Below are positions 7,824-60,738 of a stretch of DNA of 64,000 nucleotides, one piece after another. Under the pieces are notes generated by a model. It saw only the letters and a list, made by a program, of their open reading frames with translations. It did no database searches and was not told the origin of the DNA. Location of the stretch: the NCBI GenBank assembly GCA_963738405.1, contig CAVTWJ010000023.1:128001-192000 (forward strand), read 5' to 3'. The position numbers and the translations under genes are program-made. Origin of the DNA: a candidate division FCPU426 bacterium (lineage in GTDB: Bacteria; Oederibacteriota; Muellerivitia; Muellerivitales; Muellerivitaceae). How positions within the stretch are numbered: the first letter of the stretch is position 1; the number at the start of each line of letters is the position of its first letter.

Positions 7824-7915
7824 ACCACCAAGTCACCAAGACACAAAGAAAAGCATTGATTACTAATCCAAAAAAACCATTTAAGTCTTTCTTGGTGCCT
7901 TGGCGTCTTGGTGGT
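7824..7915. repeat. Tandem-unit inverted repeat element (family A), copy 1
   Basis: ACCACCAAG-TCACCAAG-ACACAAAG ... CTTGGTGC-CTTGGCGT-CTTGGTGGT. Confidence 0.9.
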
Positions 7916-12356: not shown

Positions 12357-12437
12357 ACCACAAGGGCACCAAGAAAATCTTGAGGGTTTAAATCCAAATC
12401 TTTTTTGCTGTCCTTGGTGACTTGGTGTCTTGGTGGT
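12357..12437. repeat. Family A inverted repeat element, copy 2 (between sufB and sufC)
   Basis: ACCACAAGGGCACCAAG ... CTTGGTGACTTGGTGTCTTGGTGGT. Confidence 0.88.
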
Positions 12438-13907: not shown

Positions 13908-14474
13908 TTACTTTGTCTGGGTTGTCAGACCCTGTTCTTGGTTCGTAGCTTTAAATCTTCGGTCTTCTTTTAAATCAATGGTTTGGTCGTTCTTGGTGTC
14001 TTCGCGTCTTCGTGGTGGATTTGCCGTTGCTTCCTGAAGATATTTCTGCATTTCAGGTTCGGTTTGAACCAAGTCCGAGAGCTTGCATTTTTTTAGGTAA
14101 CTGGAAACCGACAGATCCAGTCCCATCCAAAGGGAACGAATAGCGCAATCCATGTTATGAATACAGCCCAGGTGGTCACTCGAAGCGGTATCGCAATATT
14201 CTTCCTGGTTGAAGAACTTGCCCGACAGGGCTTCCATGACTTCGTTTACGTTAATTTCCTGGGGAGCGCGGCTGAGCTGGTATCCCCCGCTTTGGCCCCG
14301 AAGGCTCTGAACCAGCCCGGACTTGCGAAGAATACTCATGATTTTGCCCACATAGGCCGGGGTCAAAGCTTCCTTTTGGGCCAATTCCACAATGGTGGTA
14401 TTGCCCTTCAGGCCCTTTTTGGCCATTTGAAGCATGCAACGAAGGCCGTATTCTTCTGTGGATGAGAACTTCAC
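13908..14474 (-). CDS. Rrf2-family (IscR/SufR-like) transcriptional regulator
   Basis: EYGLRCM, wHTH with SLRGQSGGYQL and three Cys (C-x9-C-x5-C); heads the suf operon. Confidence 0.9.
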   Translation of the reverse strand: MKFSSTEEYGLRCMLQMAKKGLKGNTTIVELAQKEALTPAYVGKIMSILRKSGLVQSLRGQSGGYQLSRAPQEINVNEVMEALSGKFFNQEEYCDTASSDHLGCIHNMDCAIRSLWMGLDLSVSSYLKKCKLSDLVQTEPEMQKYLQEATANPPRRREDTKNDQTIDLKEDRRFKATNQEQGLTTQTK

Positions 14475-22684: not shown

Positions 22685-22707
22685 TTTTAGTACCCTCCGA
22701 AATTTTC

Positions 22708-22794
22708 ACCACCAAGGCACCAAGACGCCAAGAAAACCTTCAGTTTTTAAAATCCTTGAATTTGCCTTCCTTGGTGACTTCGTGTCTTGGTGGT
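22708..22794. repeat. Family A inverted repeat element, copy 3
   Basis: ACCACCAAGGCACCAAGACGCCAAG ... CTTGGTGACTTCGTGTCTTGGTGGT. Confidence 0.9.
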
Positions 22795-22796
22795 AA

Positions 22797-23585
22797 TTAT
22801 TGGTTTTTTTCATTTTTTTCTTCCTTCGAAGAAAGGGACAGGTAGAAGTCGAGGGTCTTGAGGTGCTTTTCAAAGGTTTGTTGAAGGTATTCCAGGGTGG
22901 TCAATAAAACGGAACGGGCCTGGGAAGGCGTCAATTTCAAAAGCGTCGCCCGCGAAAGGGGTAATTCGAGCAGTTTCTTGAGCCATGCCAGGGACTGGGG
23001 ATTCACTTGAAGCCGGGAAGGACCCACGGGGGAGCAGGAAGCGCAAAGGGCCCCGCCCCGGTGGGGCACCAGATTCGCCTTTTTTCCCTGTAAGGATTCC
23101 CCGCATTCGGCGCAATCGGTGAATTCCAACGGGTAGCCCCCTTCCCTTAAAAAACGAAGGTTGAAGGCGGCTAGAAGCTGTTCCCTTTGGGCCGGTTCCT
23201 TTTCCCAACCTGCCAACAAGGCTCTCACCCCGTCAAAAAGAACAGGATGGGGTTCCCCCTCCGGCAGGCATCCCAAAAGAATATCGGCCAAAAGCTGAAG
23301 AAGGGCGATAGCGGTTAAATCTTTTTTTAAATCAGGGTGCCCGTTAAGAACCTTGGCCTGGGATAGGCTGTAAGAGTCGCCGCGTTTTGCGGGATGCAGC
23401 ACGAAGGATGATTCGGTGAAAAATTCCAGGGCGGGGGCCATCCGGCTCTTGGGCTTCCTTACCCCCCGGGCGAAGGCCCGGATTCTTCCGCTTTCCTTGG
23501 TCATCAAGCGGACCCACTTGTCCGCCTCGCCCGAAGGGCTGGCCGAAAGGACAAAGCCCCGTTCGGTTTTTAAAGGTTTAGACAA
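22797..23585 (-). CDS. recO: DNA repair protein RecO
   Basis: GEADK, ARGVRKPKSR and a CAEC...CASC zinc site; start placed at TTG 23585 after GAGAGG. Confidence 0.9.
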   Translation of the reverse strand: MSKPLKTERGFVLSASPSGEADKWVRLMTKESGRIRAFARGVRKPKSRMAPALEFFTESSFVLHPAKRGDSYSLSQAKVLNGHPDLKKDLTAIALLQLLADILLGCLPEGEPHPVLFDGVRALLAGWEKEPAQREQLLAAFNLRFLREGGYPLEFTDCAECGESLQGKKANLVPHRGGALCASCSPVGPSRLQVNPQSLAWLKKLLELPLSRATLLKLTPSQARSVLLTTLEYLQQTFEKHLKTLDFYLSLSSKEEKNEKNQ

Positions 23586-23597
23586 AAACAACCCTCT

Positions 23598-23738
23598 CAC
23601 CACCACGATACGTCCCCTCCAGGGACCGGCTTGTATCGCACAAAGACACCAAGGAAGGCCAGAAAAAAGATTTGGATTTACGGTGTTCATCAAACAACTT
23701 CTTAACGGTGTTCTTGGTGTCTTCGTGTCTTGGTGGTG
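23598..23738. repeat. Family A element, copy 4, with a hairpin inserted in the left arm
   Basis: CACCACCAC[GATACGTCCC..GGGAC..GTATC]GCACAAAGACACCAAG ... CTTGGTGTCTTCGTGTCTTGGTGGTG. Confidence 0.8.
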
Positions 23739-23780
23739 AAAATATCTTTTTCTTTTGAGTTTTTTTCACGGTTTTAAGAT

Positions 23781-24845
23781 TCAAACTTGAGATTCCCTTT
23801 CATCCAGCAGGGCCACCGAGAGGGCGGGAAAATAAAGGGCGCAAAAAACCACAAAAAAGGCCGCCGTGAACAGCATTCCAAAGAAACTCAAGAACCCCAC
23901 CAAAGGCACCAAAAGCGCCAGTATCAAGAAAATCTGGACCACGATAAAAAGCGCCGCTAGGCCTATCAGGGCCAAAAAGACGCACTTCGTGAAATGCCAG
24001 CCCTGGGCAGAGCAGGATTTCCAGCCAAGCGTTAAGGATTCGGCGATGCCTTTGCCGCTTCCCACCCAAGCCTTAACCGCCAGCGAATAGGCCACGATTC
24101 CAAAAGCCACGGCAAGGTAAAGGAGGAAAACAGGGATGCTGAAGCAAACCATGATGGCCAAAGAAAGGCCGTCGCTTAAATGCAGGGCATGGATGAATAA
24201 ACCAACCCCCATCCCAACGACGCGGAAACCCAGGCCGACCCCTAAGGAAATCACGAACAATAGAGCCAGGGTTGCCAGATAGGGGAGGAAACGCCCTAAG
24301 GCATCCTTAAAAAATTCTCCGAGGGAAAAACCCTTCCCCTCCCTCTTAAGCCTCCAAAAGGCCCCGTAGATACCGCCATTGACCAGGGCTTCCAAAAACA
24401 GCGCCCACAGGCAATAAAAAAACAGGAGACCCAAAAAAATACCAAGCCAGGAAGTATCGGATGTCCCTATGGAATAAAGTTTATTTGTAAATTCCTGGGG
24501 ATCGTAGCTGTCCGGGTTTTGAATAATATCCCCGAAGGCCTGCCCCATGGCCGCGATGAGCGGCCAACACCCAACCAGAAAAACCACCCCCAGCATGGCC
24601 AGGTTCATCAGGGCCGCCAGGGACTGGAGGATCAACAGGGGCCACATTTTCATGCAGGCTTGAAAGGCGTTTTGGAACAGGACAGAGAAGGAAGTTTCCG
24701 CGCCCACGGAGGGAGAAGGTGTGGCCGTTGCCTCGGGCGCGGCATTCGGGAGCACCACGCTTTCGACAGAACTTAAGCGGGGTTTGCGACGGGGTGTTCT
24801 GGGACGAGACGATTTTCTTACCGTCCGCTTCACTGATTTCGGCAT
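23781..24845 (-). CDS. Polytopic membrane protein of unknown function
   Basis: About six TM helices after a basic, Pro-rich N-terminus. Confidence 0.75.
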   Translation of the reverse strand: MPKSVKRTVRKSSRPRTPRRKPRLSSVESVVLPNAAPEATATPSPSVGAETSFSVLFQNAFQACMKMWPLLILQSLAALMNLAMLGVVFLVGCWPLIAAMGQAFGDIIQNPDSYDPQEFTNKLYSIGTSDTSWLGIFLGLLFFYCLWALFLEALVNGGIYGAFWRLKREGKGFSLGEFFKDALGRFLPYLATLALLFVISLGVGLGFRVVGMGVGLFIHALHLSDGLSLAIMVCFSIPVFLLYLAVAFGIVAYSLAVKAWVGSGKGIAESLTLGWKSCSAQGWHFTKCVFLALIGLAALFIVVQIFLILALLVPLVGFLSFFGMLFTAAFFVVFCALYFPALSVALLDERESQV

Positions 24846-24881
24846 ATTGATCTCCGTTGTTAATCTTTCTTTTTAAACCAC

Positions 24882-24909
24882 TGTCCAATCAGGATCCCCA
24901 TCGCGGACA
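24882..24909. repeat. Family B palindrome 1 (degenerate)
   Basis: TGTCCAATCAGGATCCCCATCGCGGACA. Confidence 0.7.
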
Positions 24910-24956
24910 AGCCAAACACTTCATTGAAATTTGTATTCGGGGTATAAATCACCCGT

Positions 24957-25694
24957 TTATTTACCTAGTCGCAACTTTAATACGCTCAAAACCTTTTGGC
25001 GAGTTAGAACTGGAAGTCGGCTCAAAACCAAAGCGGAAACTTCCTTCATTTGTTCAAACAAAACAGATTCTTCTGAAGTGTCCTTCAATAAAGATGCCGA
25101 ACTATCCTTCATTGCGTCTTCGACACCATCTTCATCCAATTTACGGTCTTGCTCAGTTTTGTTTTGGCGTTCTCTCTCCTCCTGTTCGCCCATGGAAGAG
25201 ATACGACTTTGGCTATCCGCATTCGAGGTCCAATCCTCTTTCAATTCATGAACACGATTCAACAATCGGTTAATTTCCTTCAAGCCTTCCCATATCTCTT
25301 CCCCCGAAATTCCCGGTATCTTTCGCAAATCGGAAAGAACAAAGTCTTTCACACCTCGATCCAAACCCTTACCCCAATTCCGCATATCGGAAACATCCTC
25401 TTTGCCCGAAACAAAACCGATAAATGTATTGCAGGTCTCTTCGCCTACTTGATTAATTATTTTTTTACTTTGTTGGGTCGACATACCACTAATTGTCTTC
25501 AAAAAACGGCCATCTCCAAATAATTCGTAACTATTTTTTTGAGTTTCTTCCTCGTTTCTTAAATCGCGAAGACGAGTTATCAATTCCGCCTGGTGGATCT
25601 TATAAGTTTTGAATTGTTGGAAGAGAAAATACGAAAGAACAACGAAAAGTAATAGAAAAAGGTAAAAGTTGGCTGAATATTTATTCTTTTTCAT
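24957..25694 (-). CDS. Hypothetical protein with N-terminal membrane anchor (cassette)
   Basis: 245-aa AT-rich ORF filling the interval between sites 1 and 2. Confidence 0.75.
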   Translation of the reverse strand: MKKNKYSANFYLFLLLFVVLSYFLFQQFKTYKIHQAELITRLRDLRNEEETQKNSYELFGDGRFLKTISGMSTQQSKKIINQVGEETCNTFIGFVSGKEDVSDMRNWGKGLDRGVKDFVLSDLRKIPGISGEEIWEGLKEINRLLNRVHELKEDWTSNADSQSRISSMGEQEERERQNKTEQDRKLDEDGVEDAMKDSSASLLKDTSEESVLFEQMKEVSALVLSRLPVLTRQKVLSVLKLRLGK

Positions 25695-25717
25695 ACTCGT
25701 CCCATTTTTCCTTTAAG

Positions 25718-25745
25718 TGTCCACGACGGGTCCCTGTCGTGGACA
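25718..25745. repeat. Family B palindrome 2
   Basis: TGTCCACGACGGGTCCCTGTCGTGGACA. Confidence 0.95.
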
Positions 25746-25757
25746 AGGTCTAGGGCG

Positions 25758-26201
25758 CTAAATCGGATTTCGAAAGTATTTTCCAAGAAATTCCCTAGGG
25801 GTAAGGATTTCCACTTCCTTCACTCGCTCCAGGGGACGGATATCTTGGTGGTCTCCCGTGACTAGGACACGGGCCTGGGCATCCACCGCGCATTCCAAAA
25901 TCCGGTTGTCAGCGTCTTTCCTTTTGATGGTTGTGAAATGGGAGCGGGGCTCGATGAGAACAAATACGGTTTTGAGCCTTCGCCTTAATTCAATGATGCG
26001 GTGATGGTCCCACCCGGCTTTTCGGGCCAGGGTATTTTCCAACTCGGCAAGGATATAGGACGAAACGACAGCTTCGATTTTTCCTTCCCGGGCCAATTCC
26101 AAGACTTTTAAGGGAGGGCTATCTTTTCCAAATGCCAGCGCGGAAAACAATACGTTGGTATCGACAACCACCCGTAATGGTTTACTTTCTGGCATCGTCA
26201 A
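25758..26201 (-). CDS. PIN-domain toxin (TIGR00305-like)
   Basis: RVVVDTNVLFSAL, DADNRILECA, LVTGD, ILTPREF. Confidence 0.88.
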   Translation of the reverse strand: MTMPESKPLRVVVDTNVLFSALAFGKDSPPLKVLELAREGKIEAVVSSYILAELENTLARKAGWDHHRIIELRRRLKTVFVLIEPRSHFTTIKRKDADNRILECAVDAQARVLVTGDHQDIRPLERVKEVEILTPREFLGKYFRNPI

Positions 26202-26430
26202 TCAGCTGTTCAACGTCCTCCGCCGTCCTGATTCCCATTTGGGCGGCCTTGCCTCGACCGTAAGAGACCAATTCCTGCCAATCCGCCTCCTCTTTTTGAT
26301 AACGCCTGAGCGCGTCCCGGAGCAACTCGGAGCGAGTCATTCCCTTTACCTTTGCCAGCCGGTCCATTTCACTGTAAACCTTTGGCGGGAGGGATATGGT
26401 TGTTGTTTTGCTGGTTCTTCCCGTGGCCAT
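26182..26430 (-). CDS. CopG/RHH antitoxin
   Basis: TTISLP..RSELLRDALRRY; overlaps the PIN gene. Confidence 0.85.
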   Translation of the reverse strand: MATGRTSKTTTISLPPKVYSEMDRLAKVKGMTRSELLRDALRRYQKEEADWQELVSYGRGKAAQMGIRTAEDVEQLIDDARK

Positions 26431-26551
26431 ATTTTTATCCTGTATTACTAAGTGTTACAATAAGCTTAATCCCAGAATACTTCGAATTCAATCCCGCAAT
26501 TCATTGAGAAACGGCCAAAATGAAAATCTGGGCTATTATCGGGCTTTCACC

Positions 26552-26579
26552 TGTCCACGATGGGTCCCCGTCGTGGACA
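26552..26579. repeat. Family B palindrome 3
   Basis: TGTCCACGATGGGTCCCCGTCGTGGACA. Confidence 0.95.
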
Positions 26580-26597
26580 ACCTTTTATTTTTTAAGT

Positions 26598-26990
26598 CTA
26601 TTCTTTTTCCAAATCCATTTCTAATTCTTTGAAAATAAGGTAAAGCTTATGGCTTTCCTCTTTCAGTTTTTCATTAATTTCAGTTCCGATTTGTCCATAT
26701 TTTCGCGGATCAAACCAACAATCTAAAAGAAGACTACCCATACCGCCTATCAGAGACTTCTTTAGAAAAGTTATTTGTTTCTTGGAAAGTGGGCCTTCTT
26801 GCACCTCGATTAAAGAAGCGATGGCATTAAGTTCTCCCCAGCGTACTAGGGCATAAGGGTCCGGAACTAAGTCATTAATTTTTCCAGGAACGTCTTTATC
26901 CAAATATAAAATTTCAAACTTATCACGTGTAAGAGGTTTAAAAACTTCAGCTGTGATCCTAAGTTGTTCAACAAATTTTTGTTTATTCAT
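26598..26990 (-). CDS. Hypothetical protein with GGMGS motif (cassette)
   Basis: 130-aa AT-rich ORF with a GAGGTGG RBS, filling the interval between sites 3 and 4. Confidence 0.75.
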   Translation of the reverse strand: MNKQKFVEQLRITAEVFKPLTRDKFEILYLDKDVPGKINDLVPDPYALVRWGELNAIASLIEVQEGPLSKKQITFLKKSLIGGMGSLLLDCWFDPRKYGQIGTEINEKLKEESHKLYLIFKELEMDLEKE

Positions 26991-27013
26991 AATTAAATAC
27001 CCACCTCAATATC

Positions 27014-27041
27014 TGTCCACGACGGGTCCCCGTCGTGGACA
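27014..27041. repeat. Family B palindrome 4 (perfect consensus)
   Basis: TGTCCACGACGGGTCCCCGTCGTGGACA. Confidence 0.97.
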
Positions 27042-27042
27042 T

Positions 27043-27399
27043 CTAATTCCAATTAGATTTTTTTCGTTTCATGTCAAATAATAACCTTAAAAATAATTTA
27101 CCTATTTTTGATAAAACAAAAATTGCCACAATACTAACAAAAACACTAATTATTCTAATTGTCCATACAATGCTTTCTGGAATAACACCCGCAAAAGATT
27201 GGCGGTGAGTTATCACGAAAACTGTGAAAAACCCGTCGAATAAATAAAAAATGGCGAAAGCGCAGACCAAAAAAAAGATGAGCAAAGCATCAGACCATTT
27301 TTTACGAAATTTATTTACTGGATCATCGTCAAAAGTATCAGGCATCTTTAATCCTAAGTTTTGTTTCTCTCTCAATTTATCTTCATTTTCTTTGTCCAC
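27043..27399 (-). CDS. Small two-TM membrane protein (cassette)
   Basis: AT-rich; stop codon 1 bp from site 4; GTG start inside site 5, or ATG at 27345. Confidence 0.7.
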   Translation of the reverse strand: MDKENEDKLREKQNLGLKMPDTFDDDPVNKFRKKWSDALLIFFLVCAFAIFYLFDGFFTVFVITHRQSFAGVIPESIVWTIRIISVFVSIVAIFVLSKIGKLFLRLLFDMKRKKSNWN

Positions 27400-27420
27400 G
27401 AAGGGTCCCCGTCGCGGACA
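27393..27420. repeat. Family B palindrome 5
   Basis: TGTCCACGAAGGGTCCCCGTCGCGGACA. Confidence 0.93.
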
Positions 27421-27423
27421 ACA

Positions 27424-27792
27424 TTAAATCCAATTTACTTTATTTGGGCCCTCAGGTTTAGGCGGATTCTTTTTCCGCAATTCATCCTGCTTTTTGACGA
27501 TTTTAATAACCCAATAAAACCAATTTATTAAAAATAGTGCTAACCAAAAAAGCCTCAAATTAGACACAGCATCTTGGGTATCCTGTTTTAATATCGAATG
27601 AACACAAAAGCTGGAAAGCGGGAAAAAGATAAACATTATTCCTGTCAAGGTGAACAAACCGCCAAATGCCCAAACCGCGCCTTCGTATTTCGATAAATTA
27701 GAAAATGCAAATTTAAAATATATCGTTGCTAATCCCGAAAGAAGAACCCCGCCTGATAATCCCCAAAATATAAATTCACCCATTCTTTTCAT
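27424..27792 (-). CDS. Small three-TM membrane protein (cassette)
   Basis: AT-rich; stop codon 3 bp from site 5 and start 20 bp from site 6. Confidence 0.72.
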   Translation of the reverse strand: MKRMGEFIFWGLSGGVLLSGLATIYFKFAFSNLSKYEGAVWAFGGLFTLTGIMFIFFPLSSFCVHSILKQDTQDAVSNLRLFWLALFLINWFYWVIKIVKKQDELRKKNPPKPEGPNKVNWI

Positions 27793-27812
27793 CCTTCAAA
27801 CCCATAATTTGT

Positions 27813-27840
27813 TGTCCACGAAGGGTCCCTGTCGTGAACA
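27813..27840. repeat. Family B palindrome 6
   Basis: TGTCCACGAAGGGTCCCTGTCGTGAACA. Confidence 0.92.
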
Positions 27841-27866
27841 ACATTTCCCGACCAACTCTTTAACTT

Positions 27867-28265
27867 TTATGGCAAACAATGAAATCCATGTTCTCCAAAA
27901 TGCTTGTCAAAGGTGTGAACGTTCTTGACCCCGTTTCGCCGCATAACTTCAAAGCTGACGCAATCCACGAGGCTCAAATTCCTTCGTTTGGCGGTCAGAA
28001 CGGCGGCAAGTCCCGCCTCATGGTAGTTCTCATCGACCCATTCCAATGATAGAAGCGGTACCACATCCCTTTGAAAATCGGCCACGGCTTCCAAACCCAA
28101 ACGGTTTTGGATTAGGGAGAACGTCTCTAAAAGGGTGTAATTAGTGGTCACCAAGGCGGCATCCGACTCCAGCAGGGATTTCCAAGCTTGATCGGCTTTT
28201 TCGTGGAAGCGGTCTTCTTTTGTCAAAAGTGCGATAAAAAAGGAAGTATCAATGAAAGAGGTCAC
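27867..28265 (-). CDS. vapC: VapC-family PIN toxin
   Basis: FIDTSFFIAL, D.FH, LSLVDCVSF, TFDKHF. Confidence 0.9.
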   Translation of the reverse strand: MTSFIDTSFFIALLTKEDRFHEKADQAWKSLLESDAALVTTNYTLLETFSLIQNRLGLEAVADFQRDVVPLLSLEWVDENYHEAGLAAVLTAKRRNLSLVDCVSFEVMRRNGVKNVHTFDKHFGEHGFHCLP

Positions 28266-28507
28266 TTGGCGTAGTCATCCGCCAGGTACTTGTCGTGATG
28301 GATGGAAAGATCGGTGTGCTTGGAATGAAATTTCCCGGAAATGGCGATGGCGCGTTTCCGCCGCTCCTCAGGGCTGATGATTCCATTCTTTAAAAATAAT
28401 TCAACCCCCTGCCGGATGGCCTCCGCCATGGATATATGACGTTCCTTGGCGATTTTTTTCAATGAAGTGGTTTGCTTTTGGGTTAATTGAATTTGGGTGC
28501 GAACCAC
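28262..28507 (-). CDS. CopG/RHH antitoxin (VapB-like)
   Basis: MVRTQIQL..SMAEAIRQGV..DLSIHHDKYL; 4-bp overlap with vapC. Confidence 0.88.
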   Translation of the reverse strand: MVRTQIQLTQKQTTSLKKIAKERHISMAEAIRQGVELFLKNGIISPEERRKRAIAISGKFHSKHTDLSIHHDKYLADDYAK

Positions 28508-28578
28508 GGACCCCTCCCGAGTGATAACACTTACAGCATTACGATAACACTAAAGACTAATCTTGAAGCGAGAAAATC

Positions 28579-28816
28579 GGGGCCACATTCTCATGCAGGC
28601 TTGGAAGGCGTTTTGGAACAGGGTGGAGAAAGAAGTTTCCGCGCCAACGGACGAGGAAGGCGCGACCGGTGTCTCGGGCGCAGCATTCGGGAGCACCACG
28701 CTTTCGACGGAGGCCGGTACGCTTTTGCGGCGCGGGGCCCTGCGGGGGGAAGCAGTTTTCCTGGTTCTTTTGACCGGCTTCGGCATGTGTATCTCCGTTG
28801 TTAATCTTTCTTTTTA
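28579..28816 (-). pseudogene. Truncated duplicate of the 5' end and upstream region of the 23781-24845 gene
   Basis: Colinear with 24638-24875 (offset 3941): MPKPVKRT..VESVVLPNAAPE..LFQNAFQACMRMWP, after which similarity stops. Confidence 0.85.
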
Positions 28817-28841
28817 TGGACAACCATTACTTAAATTTCAT

Positions 28842-28869
28842 TGTCCACGATGGATCCCAATCATGGACA
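28842..28869. repeat. Family B palindrome 7
   Basis: TGTCCACGATGGATCCCAATCATGGACA; an extra half-site TGGACA lies at about 28817. Confidence 0.85.
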
Positions 28870-28879
28870 AGGCTATCTT

Positions 28880-29290
28880 TCAAATCCAGGGATTGAAAAG
28901 CTTCAACCTTGAAAATGAAAAGTCATGGGTATTGCGGGTGACCAGGGTGAGATTGTGGGTAATTGCTGTTGCCGCGATAAACGCGTCCACCGTCGGCAAT
29001 GGGCGATTGGCCTGTGCTTCCAAAAGTCCCCAAGCTTCGGCTACCTTGATATCCACTGGCAATATTCTTTCTTCAAATTGAATTGGGACGTCTTTCTCAA
29101 GGAATTGAATAAGCTTGGTTTTCCGGGAACCATGTTCCATTTTCTCAATTCCTTTTCGGATTTCCCCCACGGTCAAAACGCTCAAATAAAGCGATCCTTG
29201 GTCCGCATCCTTCAGCCAACTTGACACCTTGGGTTCCGGATGTTTCTTGAAGAGTTCGGAAAGGACGTTGGTGTCCAAAAGGTATTTCAA
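28880..29290 (-). CDS. vapC: VapC-family PIN toxin
   Basis: YLLDTNVLSE, DAFIAATA, LVTRNTHDF. Confidence 0.92.
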   Translation of the reverse strand: MKYLLDTNVLSELFKKHPEPKVSSWLKDADQGSLYLSVLTVGEIRKGIEKMEHGSRKTKLIQFLEKDVPIQFEERILPVDIKVAEAWGLLEAQANRPLPTVDAFIAATAITHNLTLVTRNTHDFSFSRLKLFNPWI

Positions 29291-29535
29291 AACTTCACCT
29301 TTCGCGAGACGGATTTATTCCTTTGAAAATTCAAATCCAATCCGCGAAAAGGAGAATGCCTAAAAAACTCAACTAGGTTGGGTTTGGTTTTTCTCAGGCG
29401 CTCGTAGTCCTTTTTGGAAATCACAACGGCCTCTTCACGACCGTGTAATGTGATGGACTGCGGACCATTGTTTTTCACTGTTCGAATCAGTTCGCTGAAC
29501 CTGGCCTTGGCGGTTTGCAGTTGCCACGAAGTCAT
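29287..29535 (-). CDS. Phd/YefM-family antitoxin
   Basis: WQLQTAKARFSELI..GPQSITLHG..AVVIS. Confidence 0.92.
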   Translation of the reverse strand: MTSWQLQTAKARFSELIRTVKNNGPQSITLHGREEAVVISKKDYERLRKTKPNLVEFFRHSPFRGLDLNFQRNKSVSRKVKF

Positions 29536-29575
29536 CGGTTGCCCCCGTTGAAATATTTATGACTATTCTGACTAG

Positions 29576-29604
29576 ATTCTATATAGGACGAAACGCTTTG
29601 TCAA
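29576..29604 (-). promoter_or_regulatory. Sigma70 promoter of the Phd-VapC cassette
   Basis: TTGACA-17-TAGAAT on the minus strand, 8 bp inside site 8; a tandem GACTA(G)TTCT-like repeat just downstream may be the operator. Confidence 0.75.
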
Positions 29605-29612
29605 TTTTCCAT

Positions 29613-29641
29613 TGTCCGCGCCGGGGACCCCCTCGCGGACA
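29613..29641. repeat. Family B palindrome 8 (inverted core, 29 bp)
   Basis: TGTCCGCGCCGGGGACCCCCTCGCGGACA. Confidence 0.8.
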
Positions 29642-29864
29642 ACAGATCCCGACCCACTCTTTAACTTTTATGGCAAACAATGAAATCCATGTTCTCCAAA
29701 ATGCTTGTCAAAGGTGTGGACGTTCTTGACCCCGTTTCGCCTCATCACCTCAAAGTTGACGCAATTCACGAGGCTTAAATTCCTTCGTTTGGCGGTCAGA
29801 ACGGCGGCAAGTCCCGCCTCATGGTAGTTCTCATCGACCCATTCCAATGATAGAAGCGGCACCA
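29642..29864 (-). pseudogene. 3' fragment duplicate of vapC (27867-28265)
   Basis: Colinear with 27841-28063 (offset 1801). It lacks the N-terminal half, and LVDCVS has become LVNCVN. Confidence 0.88.
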
Positions 29865-29890
29865 GTGGTTAATTGGTTTTGATATAGATT

Positions 29891-30391
29891 TTAGCGGTAA
29901 TTATTGAACTGGAGGGGAACCTTGATCTCCTGGGCGCTCCGAAGCAACTGCATCACCCCTTGAAGATCGTCCTTGTCCTTACCTGAAACCCTTACCTTCT
30001 CATCCACGATGGATACCTGCACCTTGAGCTTAGAATCCTTGACCCGCTTCACGATATCCTTGCAGGCCTCCATGGGCATTCCGCTGACGATCTTGACCTT
30101 CTGGTTAACCGTGCCGCTGAAGGCCGATTCGGCCTTTTGGTAATCCATGGCCTTGGGGGAGATGTTGCGCTTGATGAGTTTGCCGTTTAATACGTCCACC
30201 ACCGCTTTGAGGCGGGAATCATTATCAGAAACGATTTCCAATTCTTTGGTGGCCTTGTTGAGGGTGATCTTGCTGATGCTTCCCTTGAAATCGTAGCGCT
30301 GGGTAATTTCTTTCATCGCTTGGTTGACGGCGTTGTCCACTTCCTGCAGGTCCACCTCGGAAACCACGTCAAAGGAGTATTGATCAGCCAT
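29891..30391 (-). CDS. yajQ: YajQ family cyclic di-GMP/nucleotide-binding protein
   Basis: SFDVVSEVDLQEVDNAVNQ, RYDFKGS, PLQFNNYR. Confidence 0.96.
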   Translation of the reverse strand: MADQYSFDVVSEVDLQEVDNAVNQAMKEITQRYDFKGSISKITLNKATKELEIVSDNDSRLKAVVDVLNGKLIKRNISPKAMDYQKAESAFSGTVNQKVKIVSGMPMEACKDIVKRVKDSKLKVQVSIVDEKVRVSGKDKDDLQGVMQLLRSAQEIKVPLQFNNYR

Positions 30392-30425
30392 AGGTCACCT
30401 CCCAAATTATTAAAAAAGCAAATTA

Positions 30426-30518
30426 ACCACCAAGGCACAAAGACACCAAGTTAAACCTGGGATTTTAAACCCTAATCATTAATCTTTGTCTTTCTTGGTG
30501 ACTTGGTGTCTTGGTGGT
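30426..30518. repeat. Family A element, copy 5
   Basis: ACCACCAAGGCACAAAGACACCAAG ... CTTGGTGACTTGGTGTCTTGGTGGT. Confidence 0.92.
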
Positions 30519-30551
30519 GAAAAAGGTTTTTATCCTTGCGCCCCCGGTTTT

Positions 30552-31487
30552 TCAGTCACCGTCGCTGACATCCTTATCCGCTGAGGTTTGGGCTCCCTGG
30601 GGAAGGGTGATCTCCACAACCTGTCCGGTAACGCCCAAAACGCCCAGGGGCTTGCCGTTGAGCTGGATATCCACGCCCCCGGCATTTCCGATGCGAAGCT
30701 TGAAATATTTTGTGGCCTGGAAAACCCTGGTATCTCCCTGGGCCATATCCAAGGCTTGGCTGGTTGTGCTGTCATCCAAGGTGACCAAGACCCAAGCCTT
30801 GTCCAAAGCCTTGATGGTTAGGTGTTGGTAAGGATCTTTCGTTTTGGAAGCATCGTTCGGGGATTCCGCCTCGGCTAGCTCAGAGGCCGCCGACTGGACC
30901 AGCGGGGACGCGTTGGGGGTATCGGAAGTCGACGCGCTTTTGAAAACAGGCCAATGAAACTTGGCGAAGAGAGATTGTCCCTTTTCCCATCCCAGCCAGC
31001 AGACTCCAAAAAAACAAAGAACCAAAACGACCTGGCCCACAAAGGAATAAAAGGATCTCCACTTAACCCTCCGTCGCCCGGTTCCGGACCGGGATGGCAT
31101 GGGCTCGTGCAGTTCGGGTAAATCCTCCCCAAGTTCCACATCGGCATTTGCTTGAACCGCGTCCAACCGCTGAATGACCGCGGGCCGGGGGCCCAAAAAG
31201 GGGTTCCGTTTTTCCATCTCGGCTTCGGCGTTCATGGGCTCGATCTTGACCTGCACCTCGGGCACTTGGGCCTTGAATTCCTGGGTCATCTTCTTTTCGT
31301 CCAGCCCCACCACTTTGCAATAGGCCCTAATAAAACCTTTGGCGTAGGTTTGGGAAGGAAAAACCTCGTAATGGTCTTCTTCCAAAGATTCCAGGTACTT
31401 CACGGGAATGCGGGTTTTTTGGGAAATGGTTTCCAGCGAAATCTTTTTGGATTCCCTGGCCGACTTCAGGTCTGATCCGACGCTCAT
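30552..31487 (-). CDS. rodZ: RodZ-like protein (HTH_25 + TM + DUF4115)
   Basis: LKSARE..YAKGFIRAY; C-terminal IGNAGGV. Confidence 0.88.
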   Translation of the reverse strand: MSVGSDLKSARESKKISLETISQKTRIPVKYLESLEEDHYEVFPSQTYAKGFIRAYCKVVGLDEKKMTQEFKAQVPEVQVKIEPMNAEAEMEKRNPFLGPRPAVIQRLDAVQANADVELGEDLPELHEPMPSRSGTGRRRVKWRSFYSFVGQVVLVLCFFGVCWLGWEKGQSLFAKFHWPVFKSASTSDTPNASPLVQSAASELAEAESPNDASKTKDPYQHLTIKALDKAWVLVTLDDSTTSQALDMAQGDTRVFQATKYFKLRIGNAGGVDIQLNGKPLGVLGVTGQVVEITLPQGAQTSADKDVSDGD

Positions 31488-34749: not shown

Positions 34750-34918
34750 ACCACCAAGACACATGCCGACCTTCCATTAAGACTTTTGAAGAGGTCGGTA
34801 TAGTCCTGGATCCCTTAGCCCAAACGGCTAAGGAGGACAAAGACACCAAGAAAACCCAAAGGTATTAAATCTAAAATCTCTGCGCTGTTCTTACTTGGTG
34901 ACTTGGTGCCTTGGTGGT
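34750..34918. repeat. Family A element, copy 6, with nested hairpins
   Basis: ACCACCAAGACAC[about 75-bp insert]AAAGACACCAAG ... CTTGGTGACTTGGTGCCTTGGTGGT. Confidence 0.85.
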
Positions 34919-39135: not shown

Positions 39136-40467
39136 TCAACTCCCAGAAAGAGGGTCATTCACCCGGCCCATGAACAGCACAGTGTTCGAGGCGTTATCCA
39201 CGATCATGAAGATGAAAGGATGGTCCGCCACGAAGGGGATTGGGGGCGGCGGAATAAAAACCGCCTGGCAATTATTGCAACCTATTACGACCCCGGTCGC
39301 TGCGGCGGCGGTCGTTCCCTTTTCCGACACATCCACGTAGGCCTGGTGAACCACGTCCGTGATGTACAAATTATTCGTCCCGTCGATATTCCAGAAATTG
39401 GCGCCCATCATGGTCGTGGGACCAGGCGGGGTGAAGGCCAAGCTCATTCCCATGGAAGAAAGGGTATTGCTCAAATCATAGCTGGTCTTGAAGGTGAATT
39501 TCGGCAGGGCCAAATCCACCCGCGACACAGCTGTAGCGGAGGTCATGAGGGCCGAGTTAGCCGCAAGCCAGCTGTTGATGTTGTTCCCTGTCATGGCGCC
39601 CTCCAGGGCCGGCATGCCCCCTTCCGGTGGAAGGAATACGTACATGGAAGACTCACCATTCGTGTAGGGAATGGCCAGCACACTGGCTGCCCCGTTGAAA
39701 CTTCCCACGTTCGCGTTAAAAGTGATGTGCATCATGCTAACCGGCTCGGTGGTAGAGGTGGTGAGATTGAAAATCTGTTGGTTTGTATTGGTGACCGGGA
39801 ATTGGTATTGCCAGTCGCCCTTGAAATAAATAGCGTTGGTCAGCACCAGTTTTGTGTTGGAAGGGAGGGAAGAAAAAAGATCCGGAATAAACCCCGCCGT
39901 CTCCTGTGAAACCGCGCCGTTGATGGTCTGTAAGGCCGCCGTGGGGTTATTCACGAAATCCACATTGGTAACGCCCGCGTCATAATAGGTTTGAACGGTG
40001 TTGATATAAGCCTGTTGAAAGGGAAAACCCACCTGAAGCCACATGTTATCGGCCGTATCTAAGGTATAGGACTTGCCTGGAGCGTTGATTTCGTTGATCA
40101 GGGACTGGAAACCCGTCAACCTCGTCGTGGTGTTGGGGTTTAGGTTTAGGACATTCTGCATCTGGACCTGGGTGTTGCCGACCGCGCCTTCTTGGGCCAT
40201 GGCTAGACAGGTGATAATGCTGAAGGGTGAAAAAAAGATATTGCCGGATTGATTCTGATAAAAGTTATAAAGGCCGCAACCCAGCATATCGGTGGCTTGC
40301 GGAGGGGTATAAACCGCGGCGTTACTGGGAATGGGGGTGGAAACAGGACCGATGGGGCTGTTGGATAGCGGAGAAAGGGTGGTTTGAACCCGGCTGCATC
40401 CCGCGCCTCCCAAAAGGGTGAAAGTCGCCAAAACGAAACACATACCCAGCAAAAAATATTTTTTCAT
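39136..40467 (-). CDS. Serpin family protease inhibitor (lipoprotein)
   Basis: NIFFSPFSI, NAIYFKGDW, LPKF, EKGTTAAAAT hinge, FVADHPFIF, LFMGRV; GAGC lipobox. Confidence 0.95.
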   Translation of the reverse strand: MKKYFLLGMCFVLATFTLLGGAGCSRVQTTLSPLSNSPIGPVSTPIPSNAAVYTPPQATDMLGCGLYNFYQNQSGNIFFSPFSIITCLAMAQEGAVGNTQVQMQNVLNLNPNTTTRLTGFQSLINEINAPGKSYTLDTADNMWLQVGFPFQQAYINTVQTYYDAGVTNVDFVNNPTAALQTINGAVSQETAGFIPDLFSSLPSNTKLVLTNAIYFKGDWQYQFPVTNTNQQIFNLTTSTTEPVSMMHITFNANVGSFNGAASVLAIPYTNGESSMYVFLPPEGGMPALEGAMTGNNINSWLAANSALMTSATAVSRVDLALPKFTFKTSYDLSNTLSSMGMSLAFTPPGPTTMMGANFWNIDGTNNLYITDVVHQAYVDVSEKGTTAAAATGVVIGCNNCQAVFIPPPPIPFVADHPFIFMIVDNASNTVLFMGRVNDPLSGS

Positions 40468-40850: not shown

Positions 40851-41228
40851 ATGAATCAACATTTTCCAATTAAACATTTTTCCCGCTTCCTAATCTTGAT
40901 CACCGCACTTTTTTTAGCCGTTTCCCCCGTCCCGGCCGTACAAACACCCCCCGATGGAGGTTGTTTCGTCTACCCCTCTCCGGCCTCCGGAAATCTGGCT
41001 TGGGTGGTTTACAACCTATCGGATAGCGGAACCGCCGCCATCTATATTTACAACGAGGCGGGAGACCTCATCACCCAGGAACAGGCTTCCAACTCCTCCG
41101 GCCTTCAACAGACACCCTTCGATCTCACCCATTACCAAAGCGGGGTTTATATATGCCGTGTGGTTCTTACCCTGGATTCAGGCGGCACCCAAGCGCTTAA
41201 ACTTTTCAAGTTTATCGTTATCAAATGA
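40851..41228 (+). CDS. Small secreted protein consisting of a T9SS type A sorting / FlgD-Ig-like domain
   Basis: Signal peptide, then YPSP...IYIYNEAGDLI...SGVYI...KFIVIK. Confidence 0.72.
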   Translation: MNQHFPIKHFSRFLILITALFLAVSPVPAVQTPPDGGCFVYPSPASGNLAWVVYNLSDSGTAAIYIYNEAGDLITQEQASNSSGLQQTPFDLTHYQSGVYICRVVLTLDSGGTQALKLFKFIVIK

Positions 41229-42597: not shown

Positions 42598-43170
42598 ATG
42601 CCCGACGAAAGGGAGCTGGTAAAAAAAATACTCGCGGGCAATGTGGAGGTGCAGACTTTTTTCTACCGGGAAAACGCCCGGCGCCTCTTCCACATCTGCA
42701 TCCACTTCCTGGGCCCGGAGGACGACGAGGCGGATGACATCGTCCAGCAAACCTTCCTCATCGCGCTGGAAAAACTGGGGACCTTCGAGTTCCGGTCGAG
42801 CCTCTACACCTGGCTTTCCAACATCTGCGCGAACCTTTGCTACGAAAGGCTGAGGCGTAAAAAAAAGGTCCTGGCTTCCCTGGAAGAAGAGTTGGAACAG
42901 CTGATGGTCCCGCCCCCCGGCACCACGCCGGATACGGAGATAGACGAGGATGAAAAAAAGGCCCGGCTGGCCCTTTTGGAGCGGTTGGTTCAATCCATGA
43001 GCGAAAGATGCCGACAGGTGCTGGAACTTCGGGATAAACGGGGAGAAAGTTACATCCATATTTCAAAGGCTTTGAAAATACCATTGGGAACGGTGATGTC
43101 CCAATTGGCCCGCTGCCGCAAGGCATTGGGAAATCTCTTCAAGAATGAATGGAACGGGAGCGGATTGTGA
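42598..43170 (+). CDS. ECF RNA polymerase sigma factor
   Basis: ADDIVQQTF, FEFRSSLYTWL and region 4 SY..IS..LKIPLGTVMSQLAR. Confidence 0.92.
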   Translation: MPDERELVKKILAGNVEVQTFFYRENARRLFHICIHFLGPEDDEADDIVQQTFLIALEKLGTFEFRSSLYTWLSNICANLCYERLRRKKKVLASLEEELEQLMVPPPGTTPDTEIDEDEKKARLALLERLVQSMSERCRQVLELRDKRGESYIHISKALKIPLGTVMSQLARCRKALGNLFKNEWNGSGL

Positions 43171-43958
43171 AGGAACTGGTGGAAGATTACTTTAAGCGGG
43201 ATTTGAACCCCGAGGAAGAAGAGCGGCTGGGCAAATGGTTGGCTTCTTCCTCTGAAGGTTCCCAACGCTTGATCGAGTTGGCGGAAAACCATTTCCGTCA
43301 ACTGGGCGTTCAGGAACCCGATTGGCAAGAAGGCCCCTTGCCTTCCTATTTCCCGAAATCCCGCAGCCGTTTTCTTTTGGTCGCCCTTTGCGCCCTTATT
43401 ACCTGCGTGCTGGCTCTGCTGGGTTATTCCGCCATCCGCCGGTTCGGTTTGAAACCCACACCCGCTTCGTCCGTCCTCGAAACCAAAACCAATGTCGCGC
43501 CCAATCAACCCCTTACCTCTTCCACCTCCCAAAAGCAGGCGGTCAGCAAAAAACAGGAAGTCCCGGAAGATTCGTCCCGCGCATCCACTTCCGCGCCGTC
43601 TCTATCAACTGAAAAGGCGTCTCTCCATACCTTGCCGAGTGGAACGGCCGCAAATAACCCTTCATCCGTCCCTCCCGCCCTGGCGCCGCCTTCAACGGCC
43701 CAAGGAAAGCTCTACGAAGAACTTTCCGTCGTGGTCGAGACCGCCCATCCAGGCCTCGCCACCGTTAGGGTCTTGAACGATCAGAACAAGGTAATCCGCC
43801 TTCTCTATGCGGGCATCTTAGCGCCCGGGCAACGAACCTTTACTTGGGATGGAAAAGACGACAATGGAATAGTAGCTTCTGCGGGGATTTATTACCTGGA
43901 GGTAAATTCAGGAGCTAAAGTCATGCGACAAGAAGTGCGTGTGGGGCAAACTCCCTGA
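43149..43958 (+). CDS. Putative anti-sigma factor with C-terminal FlgD Ig-like domain
   Basis: Overlaps the sigma gene; DYF..DL.PEEE..L..WL, one TM, S/P linker, FTWDGKDDNG...SAGIYY. Confidence 0.78.
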   Translation: MERERIVKELVEDYFKRDLNPEEEERLGKWLASSSEGSQRLIELAENHFRQLGVQEPDWQEGPLPSYFPKSRSRFLLVALCALITCVLALLGYSAIRRFGLKPTPASSVLETKTNVAPNQPLTSSTSQKQAVSKKQEVPEDSSRASTSAPSLSTEKASLHTLPSGTAANNPSSVPPALAPPSTAQGKLYEELSVVVETAHPGLATVRVLNDQNKVIRLLYAGILAPGQRTFTWDGKDDNGIVASAGIYYLEVNSGAKVMRQEVRVGQTP

Positions 43959-60073: not shown

Positions 60074-60090
60074 ATCGTCCAATGTTACTG

Positions 60091-60710: not shown

Positions 60711-60738
60711 TGTCCACGACGGGTCCCCGTCGTGGACA
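60711..60738. repeat. Family B palindrome 9 (perfect consensus)
   Basis: TGTCCACGACGGGTCCCCGTCGTGGACA, identical to 27014-27041. Confidence 0.97.

Follow-up and report, generated by a model that had tools for sequence, protein, structure and literature searches.

A conserved 28-bp palindromic site joins accessory-gene units in co-oriented arrays of uncultured bacteria

We analyzed a 64,000-nucleotide stretch (the window) of contig CAVTWJ010000023.1 from a candidate division FCPU426 bacterium, in which a palindromic site of 28 bp recurs between the small genes of an array at positions 24,882 to 29,641. Accessory-gene units are joined at this site, which is conserved across a lineage and at which gene-content mosaics break. 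The window itself is ordinary chromosome (glyQS, the suf operon, gatCAB, rpsI/rplM, uvrD, ftsK, rodZ, lolA). Every open reading frame (ORF) of the array lies on the minus strand, in agreement with the original prediction, which had been made from the letters of the window alone. Read in gene direction, YajQ and the 3′ fragment of a PIN gene precede site 8, which is followed by a Phd/PIN pair, site 7 and the 5′ fragment of a gene for a protein of 354 amino acids (aa). Next come an RHH/PIN pair, site 6, an ORF of 122 aa, site 5, an ORF of about 100 aa and site 4. The array continues with an ORF of 130 aa, site 3, an RHH/PIN_3 pair, site 2, an ORF of 245 aa and site 1, behind which lie the 354-aa gene and RecO. 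All coordinates are collected in Table 1.

The original prediction had described eight copies of a 28-bp palindrome. When this palindrome was scanned over the window with up to three mismatches, six matches were obtained, five in the array and one elsewhere, compared to 0.00 expected from 100 shuffles used as control. All eight array sites were recovered by reading the sequence and by looser scans, and their predicted starts and spacings (836, 834, 462, 379, 420, 1029, and 771 bp) were correct. The copies are not uniform: only site 4 is exact within the array, site 1 (seven mismatches) and site 7 (five mismatches) are degenerate, and site 8 comprises 29 bp. The number of eight holds for the array but leaves out a ninth copy at 60711-60738, which is again exact. 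A profile derived from 114 sites of other genomes found exactly nine places in the 64 kb, with the rest at noise. Sites 1-7 share the orientation of their core, as predicted, and the core of site 8 is inverted; the profile matched site 8 on the opposite strand. As DNA, the canonical sites of the window fold into hairpins of -9.5 to -18.7 kcal/mol (z = -2.6 to -8.2), whereas site 1, with -3.1 kcal/mol and z = -0.14, forms none. Within the window, the palindromic site is confined to the array and to one AT-rich ORF.

The arrangement of genes relative to the sites largely followed the prediction. Between a stop codon and the site downstream of it there are 1-47 nt, the 245-, 130-, and 122-aa ORFs start 23, 23, and 20 nt from the upstream site, and the three toxin-antitoxin pairs have 77-121 nt or more of upstream DNA. 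For the fourth single ORF a start inside a site had been claimed; such a GTG does exist within site 5, but it is an alternative to an ATG located 47 nt from that site. The intervals had been called AT-rich, which was confirmed for the segments holding single ORFs (GC content 0.30-0.39, compared to about 0.51 for the window). A promoter within the site was considered and rejected, since no sigma-70-like match was found at any site of the window array. Four promoter-like hits were obtained across the array, compared to 8.5 expected, and one sigma-70-like promoter with 11 of 12 matching positions lies just past site 8, ahead of the Phd/PIN pair.

To locate the site elsewhere, species-representative genomes were scanned with a degenerate site pattern. 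At least 59 loci were obtained, which were merged to 37 regions comprising 409 kb. Three regions, high-GC, actinobacterial and chance-like, were set aside; the other 34 belong to eight assemblies of uncultured bacteria. Assemblies with the site include CAVYRH01, CAWJKT01, CAZGKT01, JAICXI01, CAZUXW01, CAZHFP01, and JABDGD01. Site counts outside the window were obtained by a 28-mer scan of these regions with up to six mismatches and are lower bounds. The 34 regions contain at least 116 sites, with up to ten per region, and the exact consensus 28-mer is present in the window and, among the matches listed, in seven assemblies. Besides the site, the window and the fetched regions have no DNA in common, and the regions are not orthologous. 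When look-alikes of the 354-aa protein of the window were searched, a weak lead to Nitrospirota was obtained; a second search of this type yielded nothing. The logo of the site, given in gene sense, reads T-TGTCCACGACG-GGGACC-CGTCGTGGACA-A, corresponding to a unit of 28-30 bp, and 103 of 124 sites have the core GGGACC. Variation is lowest in the 5′ arm and the core and highest in the inner four bases of the 3′ arm. Conservation extends over 30 nt and falls sharply to background at both ends, and the assumption of a longer unit was therefore rejected. Past these 30 nt neither extended conservation nor an attI-like flank was detected, and the sites with a variant arm have no extended flank in common. 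Judged from this profile, the site is under strong sequence selection across genomes. A scan of the window and seven loci at gathering thresholds and a permissive scan of positions 23700-30600 revealed no Rfam family at the sites. The site sequence occurs in none of 8.4 million full texts searched, and a concept-based literature search returned no description of such a site.

In the 34 regions, nearly all sites of one region point in the same direction. The end of a sense ORF lies within 150 nt upstream of 111 of the 116 sites and within 40 nt of 83 (antisense controls 78 and 30), and the start of a sense ORF lies within 120 nt downstream of 92 of 116 sites (control 56). The distance from the site to the stop codon is tighter than that to the start codon. 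On the 3′ side, an A-rich stretch is followed by G-rich positions and, after about 17-20 nt, by an ATG-like signal, that is, by weak signals of a ribosome-binding site (RBS) and a start codon. The nearest ORF of at least 150 aa was co-oriented with the site at 101 of 111 sites upstream and at 91 of 105 sites downstream. The 87 segments between sites have a median length of 881 bp (quartiles 633 and 1818 bp, range 262-5919 bp), and 63 of them do not exceed 1500 bp. The same site thus delimits cassette-sized units in eight other assemblies, where the cassette logic deduced from the window, with co-oriented units and one site each, recurs.

The content of the cassettes is accessory and diverse. 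At the other loci, toxin-antitoxin genes are frequent (PIN/VapB, MazEF, HigBA, BrnT, MqsA-like), accompanied by GNAT acetyltransferases, reductases, many ORFs without family and defence-type genes for GmrSD, a DndB-like protein, a D12 methylase and Cas1. BLASTP of the window's cassette proteins against the proteins encoded at the other loci gave no match at E ≤ 1e-5. Some arrays may ride on or abut conjugative elements, as judged from three regions (L021:1445-5213, L057:64-2311, L032:3400-5700) in which the array begins right behind a conserved gene block of the plasmid or integrative and conjugative element type (ArdC, RadC, HigBA, the C-terminal domain of TraG/TraD and a divergent SpoVG-like gene). 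Another array adjoins a fluoride riboswitch (crcB motif, 51 bits) at L016:31-96.

The close association with stop codons bears on the main alternative reading, in which a palindrome resembling repetitive extragenic palindromic (REP) elements spreads directly behind stop codons, with an effect mainly through RNA or DNA structure, for example by protecting mRNA 3′ ends, with mosaics arising secondarily by homologous recombination and hairpin-targeting mobile elements. We regard this as possible but rather unlikely. A palindromic multi-copy element of 28-30 bp, located 0-40 nt past the stop codon in 83 of 116 cases and forming strong hairpins in its canonical copies, would fit it well, and so would the single copies behind ordinary genes, including a convergent gene pair, and the lack of a dedicated recombinase nearby. 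The distribution of the site speaks against it. About 55 intergenic regions between housekeeping genes of the window are devoid of the 28-bp site in the profile scan, and seven places of this kind contain another repeat family instead; within the window, the site is thus not spread among housekeeping genes like a REP, as the original prediction had anticipated. About 90% of the sites are co-oriented with the genes, and no inverted pairs occur in the fetched regions save for site 8 of the window and one or two odd sites. Runs of accessory genes moreover have one site per gene boundary. An intrinsic terminator, which would also place a hairpin behind genes, was considered and rejected, because the site is followed in gene sense by an A-rich tract and not by a T-run; a terminator-like call was obtained at only one site, and there on the antisense strand.

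The other repeat family of the window is itself palindromic, consists of CTTGGTG-like units unrelated to the 28-bp site and is present with ten half-copies at seven housekeeping intergenic places (Table 1). Its copies often form inverted pairs, giving rise to long hairpins. This family behaves as the ordinary REP/REPIN-type element (REPIN, REP doublet forming hairpins) of this genome, which shows that the genome does have an ordinary REP-like element and that the 28-bp site is distributed otherwise.

The comparison of regions revealed that the mosaics have their junctions at the sites. Four contigs of one assembly contain a block of site, 863 bp and site with 99.9-100% identity. Three different neighbors occur upstream of this block and two downstream, and the switch in identity coincides exactly with the outer site edges. 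Three contigs share a left flank of 6 kb (96-98% identity) up to the right edge of the first site, beyond which different cassettes follow. A short site-flanked cassette of one assembly was present with 86% identity in another, again between sites, one of them with an intron. For all region pairs, 42 of 192 internal homology endpoints fell within a site ±5 bp, compared to 2.3 expected, an excess that is in part due to introns and insertion sequence (IS) elements inserted at sites and to the mutual homology of the sites. Several contigs start or stop in a site, which is expected where the assembly forks there. With identical units in different contexts and junctions exactly at the sites, differences in gene content map to the sites, as the original prediction had proposed.

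Both internal duplications of the window are likewise bounded by sites. The 3′ fragment of the PIN gene is nearly identical to its parent as far as the site and is unrelated beyond. For the fragment of the 354-aa gene, homology begins just past the site, with unrelated DNA before it; the mean column identity of 83% refers to an alignment of 326 columns that includes unrelated DNA upstream of the sites. Taken together, the two fragments suggest that the locus was duplicated long ago, with deletion and turnover of cassettes thereafter.

Not only the units but also the arms of the sites were found to be linked to their flanks. In each of its three upstream contexts, the 863-bp cassette has the 3′ arm CATCG. 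Similarly, the rare 3′ arm CTTCGTGAACA stays with a unit encoding Cas1 and a 111-aa ORF in three of three contexts, one of which has a different 5′ arm. This linkage of arm variants to the downstream unit argues for crossover inside the site, which in the Cas1 case would have occurred between position 5 and about position 18. The Cas1 unit (L001:2113-3153, L028:9785-11157, L036:6677-8049; all in one assembly, 99.7-99.8% identity) behaves as a mobile unit behind a site, and its far end resembles a decayed site. Its fetched flanks contain no CRISPR array and no effector genes, and the 111-aa ORF following Cas1 was not recognised as Cas2.

An alternative 3′-arm haplotype, CGGA(T/A/G)TGGACA with its relatives, was found at about 18 sites of several assemblies, including site 1 of the window. 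It destroys the hairpin and often, though not always, abuts core-like DNA of higher GC content at the downstream end of an array. As this arm also occurs inside arrays, its role as a strict array-end marker was rejected. The idea that the two half-sites of one cassette co-evolve, with the upstream 3′ arm complementing the downstream 5′ arm, failed a check by eye of the window array. Among 74 distinct sites, nine cells of the stem were compensated, compared to 8.6 in shuffles, and 142 cells were unpaired. The lack of compensatory covariation indicates selection on sequence rather than on pairing, and the pattern points to conservation as for a protein-binding site and not merely of a fold. Both this result and the recurrent haplotype without hairpin speak against a REP-like element acting through its structure.

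Conservation of sequence rather than fold, together with a palindrome having a fixed center, would also suit a regulatory signal that travels with the genes, either an operator for a global dimeric DNA-binding protein or an RNA hairpin for a processing nuclease that silences or cuts transcripts of acquired genes. The position of the site directly ahead of the RBS and start codon of the next gene and the frequency of PIN-domain nucleases among the cargo agree with such a function. However, a signal of this kind would not account for the presence of one site at unrelated genes or for the homology breaks there, except on the assumption that the units are mobile. In addition, the sites lack a consistently linked regulator gene, and it is the stop codon, not the start codon, to which the distance is tighter. 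Altogether, we rate a regulatory role as improbable.

The sites are also targets of mobile elements. In seven loci, 11 group II intron 5′ domains were identified with Rfam; each of them is in gene sense, and eight begin immediately after a site. Introns without ORF, about 800 nt in length, start right after ...GTGGACA(TC) and end just before the RBS of the next gene; they are presumably mobilised in trans. Near-identical copies are located at L053:6028-6828, L023:6028-6828, L023:7737-8538, L052:7105-7905, L028:858-1657, and L016:215-1015. An IS110-family element with a 358-aa transposase directly abuts GTGGACA on either side of the palindrome, and a second IS110 type resides inside introns. 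Nested IS110 elements in intron copies are located at L028:2844-3989 and L027:3434-4579. Class C introns are known to insert also behind terminator hairpins, and IS110 elements to insert into REPs, so that these insertions at the site edge would be in line with a REP-like element as well. The insertions identify the site as a recognised hairpin or sequence target and do not decide between the main readings. For the attC sites of integrons, PMC3001079 describes a comparable attraction of a dedicated class C intron lineage and of the IS1111-attC group, whose insertions are in the bottom strand and antisense with respect to the cassettes.

The search for an enzyme acting on the sites covered the window and a flank set of 441 proteins of at least 70 aa encoded within 6 kb of sites; the flank set was searched at 1e-5 in the first of three batches and at 1e-8 in the remaining ones. 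No recombinase or transposase, neither with a Phage_integrase domain nor of the Y1/HUH type, was present among the 64 window ORFs scanned. The original prediction had suggested looking for tyrosine recombinases or REP-associated tyrosine transposases (RAYTs) next to other copies, but this yielded only one truncated phage-type integrase and no Y1 transposase. The integrase, the only one of the 441 flank proteins with a tyrosine recombinase domain (L027), is cut off by the contig end, scores 43 bits compared to an integron-integrase cut-off of 265 and has, by eye, a phage-type arm-binding region at its N-terminus, for which no domain hit was obtained. Being phage-type and truncated, it was set aside as a candidate for the cassette enzyme. 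The only serine recombinase in the flanks is a 78-aa fragment, with none intact, and neither the window nor the flanks contain a xer gene. The conserved region before the first site of four contigs was rejected as a source of the recombinase, as it harbors the SpoVG-like gene and ArdC, RadC, and HigBA. If the enzyme exists, it is encoded elsewhere. For the predicted supply of a recombinase or HUH transposase in trans, no such enzyme was found in the window and flanks. Between the integrase of L027 and a perfect site, about 1 kb of non-coding DNA (L027:6060-7050) contains ten or more different short hairpins, each with a T-run, and TTGGTAG-like motifs between them; this segment gave neither a Tandem Repeats Finder call nor an Rfam match.

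The prediction had allowed for an HUH transposase, and a Y1 enzyme acting in trans could mobilise hairpin-bounded units as single strands in the manner of IS200/IS605 elements or REPINs, cutting and pasting any stretch between two co-oriented hairpins. The sites keep one strand polarity per region, which in the window corresponds to the leading-strand sequence (assigned from the negative GC skew on the plus strand and the genes on the minus strand), the hairpin-recognising group II introns have the same polarity in 11 of 11 cases, and canonical sites fold well as single-stranded DNA. Nevertheless, this mechanism seems to us to have little probability: Y1 or HUH domains are absent from the 441 flank and the 64 window proteins, a conserved guide or cleavage motif beyond the 30-nt unit is lacking, variant sites do not fold, and the hybrid sites, whose arms are linked to opposite flanks, fit a crossover within the site better than cleavage at a distance. 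The absence of Y1 transposases (0 of 441) likewise weakens the REP-like reading.

In view of sites that are strictly oriented and positioned, of modular mosaics whose junctions lie at them and of arm variants linked to their flanks, we favor an integron-analogous mobile cassette pool, in which exchange proceeds by crossover inside a simple core-type site and is catalysed in trans; we give this explanation about an even chance of being correct. According to this model, the 28-30-bp palindromes would be the joints of a mobile gene-cassette pool common to a lineage. The 5′ arm of a site would represent the tail of the upstream unit and the 3′ arm the head of the downstream unit, and because the arms are divided in this way between neighboring units, a crossover inside the site could move, delete or insert whole genes without damage. 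Such exchange would result in co-oriented arrays of mostly promoterless small ORFs with interspersed self-promoted toxin-antitoxin pairs. Site-specific catalysis would be due to an enzyme encoded elsewhere, the simplest candidate being a tyrosine recombinase that acts on a double-stranded 11-6-11 core site, and the asymmetric center might set the direction in the manner of lox or dif.

Several observations weigh against this model. No catalyst was found in the 64-kb window or among the 441 flank proteins, and excised circles, circle junctions or empty sites were not observed. One binned assembly is the source of several mosaic contigs, which may represent co-assembled strain variants or paralogous loci. 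RecA-dependent exchange may require no more identity than these 28-30 bp and would then leave its breakpoints at the same places. Sites 1 and 7 of the window share the rare core GGGATC, but their 3′ arms differ despite homologous downstream DNA, which means that the crossover point would not be uniform. Finally, eight of the 34 regions have a single site, in some cases behind ordinary genes and in one at a convergent gene pair (L055). With respect to the original prediction of a gene capture and shuffling platform, capture and shuffling are backed by the same units in different contexts with junctions at sites, but not by an excised circle or empty site, and the term platform was an overstatement, as there is no attI-like region, no cassette promoter and more than one array per genome, in fact many.

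The array works like an integron or an array of the CALIN type (cluster of attC sites lacking an integron-integrase), but is neither. attC sites are imperfect palindromes of about 57-141 bp with R′′ (RYYYAAC) and R′ (GTTRRRY) ends and extrahelical bases. The site described here comprises only 28-30 bp, and its consensus is a perfect 11-6-11 palindrome with neither the AAC...GTT triplets of R′′ and R′, whose lack had been predicted, nor extrahelical bases; the attC architecture is thus absent, whereas the co-oriented array with one site per cassette is present. Common to both are co-oriented, mostly promoterless single-gene units of cassette size with one conserved site each, toxin-antitoxin cassettes with their own promoters, diverse and often orphan cargo, the presence of the same cassette in different arrays, the division of the site between neighbors and many arrays without an adjacent integrase. 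A complete integron would have IntI, attI, and Pc at the array end, whereas no IntI-type integrase, attI or Pc was found in the window and flanks; a CALIN does not require them. The arrays also differ from integrons in that dozens of them, together with single sites, are present per genome instead of one platform. As at the sites described here, group II introns and IS110/IS1111-type elements exploit attC sites, but according to PMC3001079 these insertions are in the bottom strand and antisense, whereas the introns and IS elements at our sites are in sense and located at the 3′ edge.

Among known systems, the Acinetobacter dif modules (pdif sites, XerC/XerD) come nearest where small modules with an enzyme supplied in trans are concerned. 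They share the 28-bp site with 11-6-11 geometry and, according to PMC6449649 and to other published titles and abstracts, form small accessory modules, often toxin-antitoxin pairs, that occur in different contexts, use a recombinase supplied in trans and have sites targeted by insertion sequences. In PMC6449649, dif sites are described as having conserved inner arm parts and variable outer parts and 6-bp centers. The pattern found here is the reverse, with the outer arm parts and the center most conserved and the inner part of one arm variable, which sets the site apart from dif by that published description and is in line with the predicted absence of a dif match. Moreover, PMC6449649 describes dif modules as flanked by inversely oriented sites, whereas the sites described here are direct repeats, and the arrays are chromosomal, among core genes, and not on plasmids.

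Other known elements match in single features. REPs, bacterial interspersed mosaic elements (BIMEs) and REPINs are likewise short, GC-rich, multi-copy palindromes in transcribed intergenic space just past stop codons, and REPs are targets of IS110-family elements. The sites described here, however, cluster at accessory-gene boundaries and not among housekeeping operons, have a single orientation tied to gene direction and are direct repeats without inverted doublets, and no RAYT was found in the flanks, in accordance with the lack of Y1 domains in the 441 flank and 64 window proteins. Sites of the lox/FRT type resemble the site in having two inverted arms around a short, asymmetric and invariant center that sets direction, and as direct repeats they would give circles with one site each; they differ in that our site has no known cognate recombinase. 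We know of no simple core-type tyrosine-recombinase site that punctuates multi-cassette chromosomal arrays. A CRISPR array, which consists of repeats of 23-50 bp with similarly short spacers and adjacent cas genes, was rejected, because the segments between sites comprise 262-5919 bp and contain genes, and Cas1 is only cargo, present at three loci. Short-period repeat arrays were detected neither in the fetched regions nor in the window.

The new aspect is a cassette array with a novel simple site; cassette-array logic itself was already known. A more far-reaching proposal would be a previously undescribed cassette system, analogous to but independent of integrons, with a lox-like 28-bp core site split between cassettes, a dedicated putative trans recombinase, dozens of small arrays per genome, a site common across species and its own group II intron and IS110 parasites parallel to those of attC. 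This proposal is tentative and in our opinion somewhat more likely to fail than to hold. To our knowledge, there is hardly any general system of cassette capture besides the textbook case of integrons, which depend on a folded single-stranded attC site. If the proposal is true, a second system with integron logic at the genome level would exist with a simple, double-stranded-type site, and cassette economies would have evolved more than once. The 28-bp site would then be a tractable starting point for finding a new recombinase with possible use as a tool, and uncultured bacteria would harbor a large hidden mobile pool of toxin-antitoxin, defence, and orphan genes that is invisible to integron-detection software. 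If the REP-like reading applied instead, this would be a case of a repeat that organises accessory-gene mosaics and attracts hairpin-targeting introns and RNA-guided IS110 elements.

Table 1. Sites, cassettes and flanking features of the window. Sites are numbered by position; genes are read from high to low coordinates.
Feature	Position	Strand	Remarks
Site 1	24882..24909	-	Last in gene direction; degenerate, core GGGATC, variant 3′ arm CTGATTGGACA, no hairpin fold
Site 2	25718..25745	-	Palindrome match
Site 3	26552..26579	-	Palindrome match
Site 4	27014..27041	-	Exact consensus copy; -15 kcal/mol
Site 5	27393..27420	-	Palindrome match
Site 6	27813..27840	-	Palindrome match
Site 7	28842..28869	-	Degenerate, core GGGATC
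Site 8	29613..29641	+	29 bp; core inverted relative to sites 1-7
Site 9	60711..60738	-	Exact copy; 31 nt past stop codon of LacI-type gene; -18.7 kcal/mol
Cassette ORF, 245 aa, AT-rich	24957..25694	-	No family match
Toxin-antitoxin cassette	25758..26430	-	PIN_3 toxin 25758-26201, RHH antitoxin 26182-26430; 121 nt upstream DNA before site 3
Cassette ORF, 130 aa	26598..26990	-	One homologue besides itself (63% identity) in a set of 5.8 billion proteins
Cassette ORF, about 100 aa	27043..27345	-	With ATG at 27345; alternative GTG at 27399 inside site 5
Cassette ORF, 122 aa	27424..27792	-	
Toxin-antitoxin cassette	27867..28507	-	PIN 27867-28265, RHH 28262-28507
Toxin-antitoxin cassette	28880..29535	-	PIN 28880-29290, Phd/YefM 29287-29535; own promoter-like site 29576-29604
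Duplicate of 354-aa gene 5′ end and leader	28550..28841	-	Diverged; homology begins just after site 7
Duplicate of 3′ end of PIN gene 27867-28265	29642..29864	-	Nearly identical up to the site, where homology ends
Solitary AT-rich cassette-like ORF, 182 aa	60140..60688	-	Start 22 nt past site 9
Membrane-like flanking gene, 354 aa	23781..24845	-	Preceded by site 1, followed by RecO
YajQ/DUF520-family flanking core gene	29891..30391	-	Upstream of array
CTTGGTG-type repeat	7824-7915, 12413-12437, 13992-14016, 22705-22807, 23704-23750, 30423-30531, 34894-34918		Intergenic

The ninth site of the window precedes a solitary ORF of 182 aa, behind which no second full site was found. At about 60076-60086, after this ORF, a match of only 8-9 nt to the variant 3′ arm (ATTGGACG in gene sense) is located, which adjoins the terminator-like hairpin of a convergent gene and is a possible remnant of a variant arm. 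Outside the array, the window furthermore encodes, as hints at the lineage of its source, a bacterial serpin and two proteins with Por_Secre_tail (type IX secretion sorting) or FlgD-Ig domains (39136-40467, 40851-41228, and 43149-43958).

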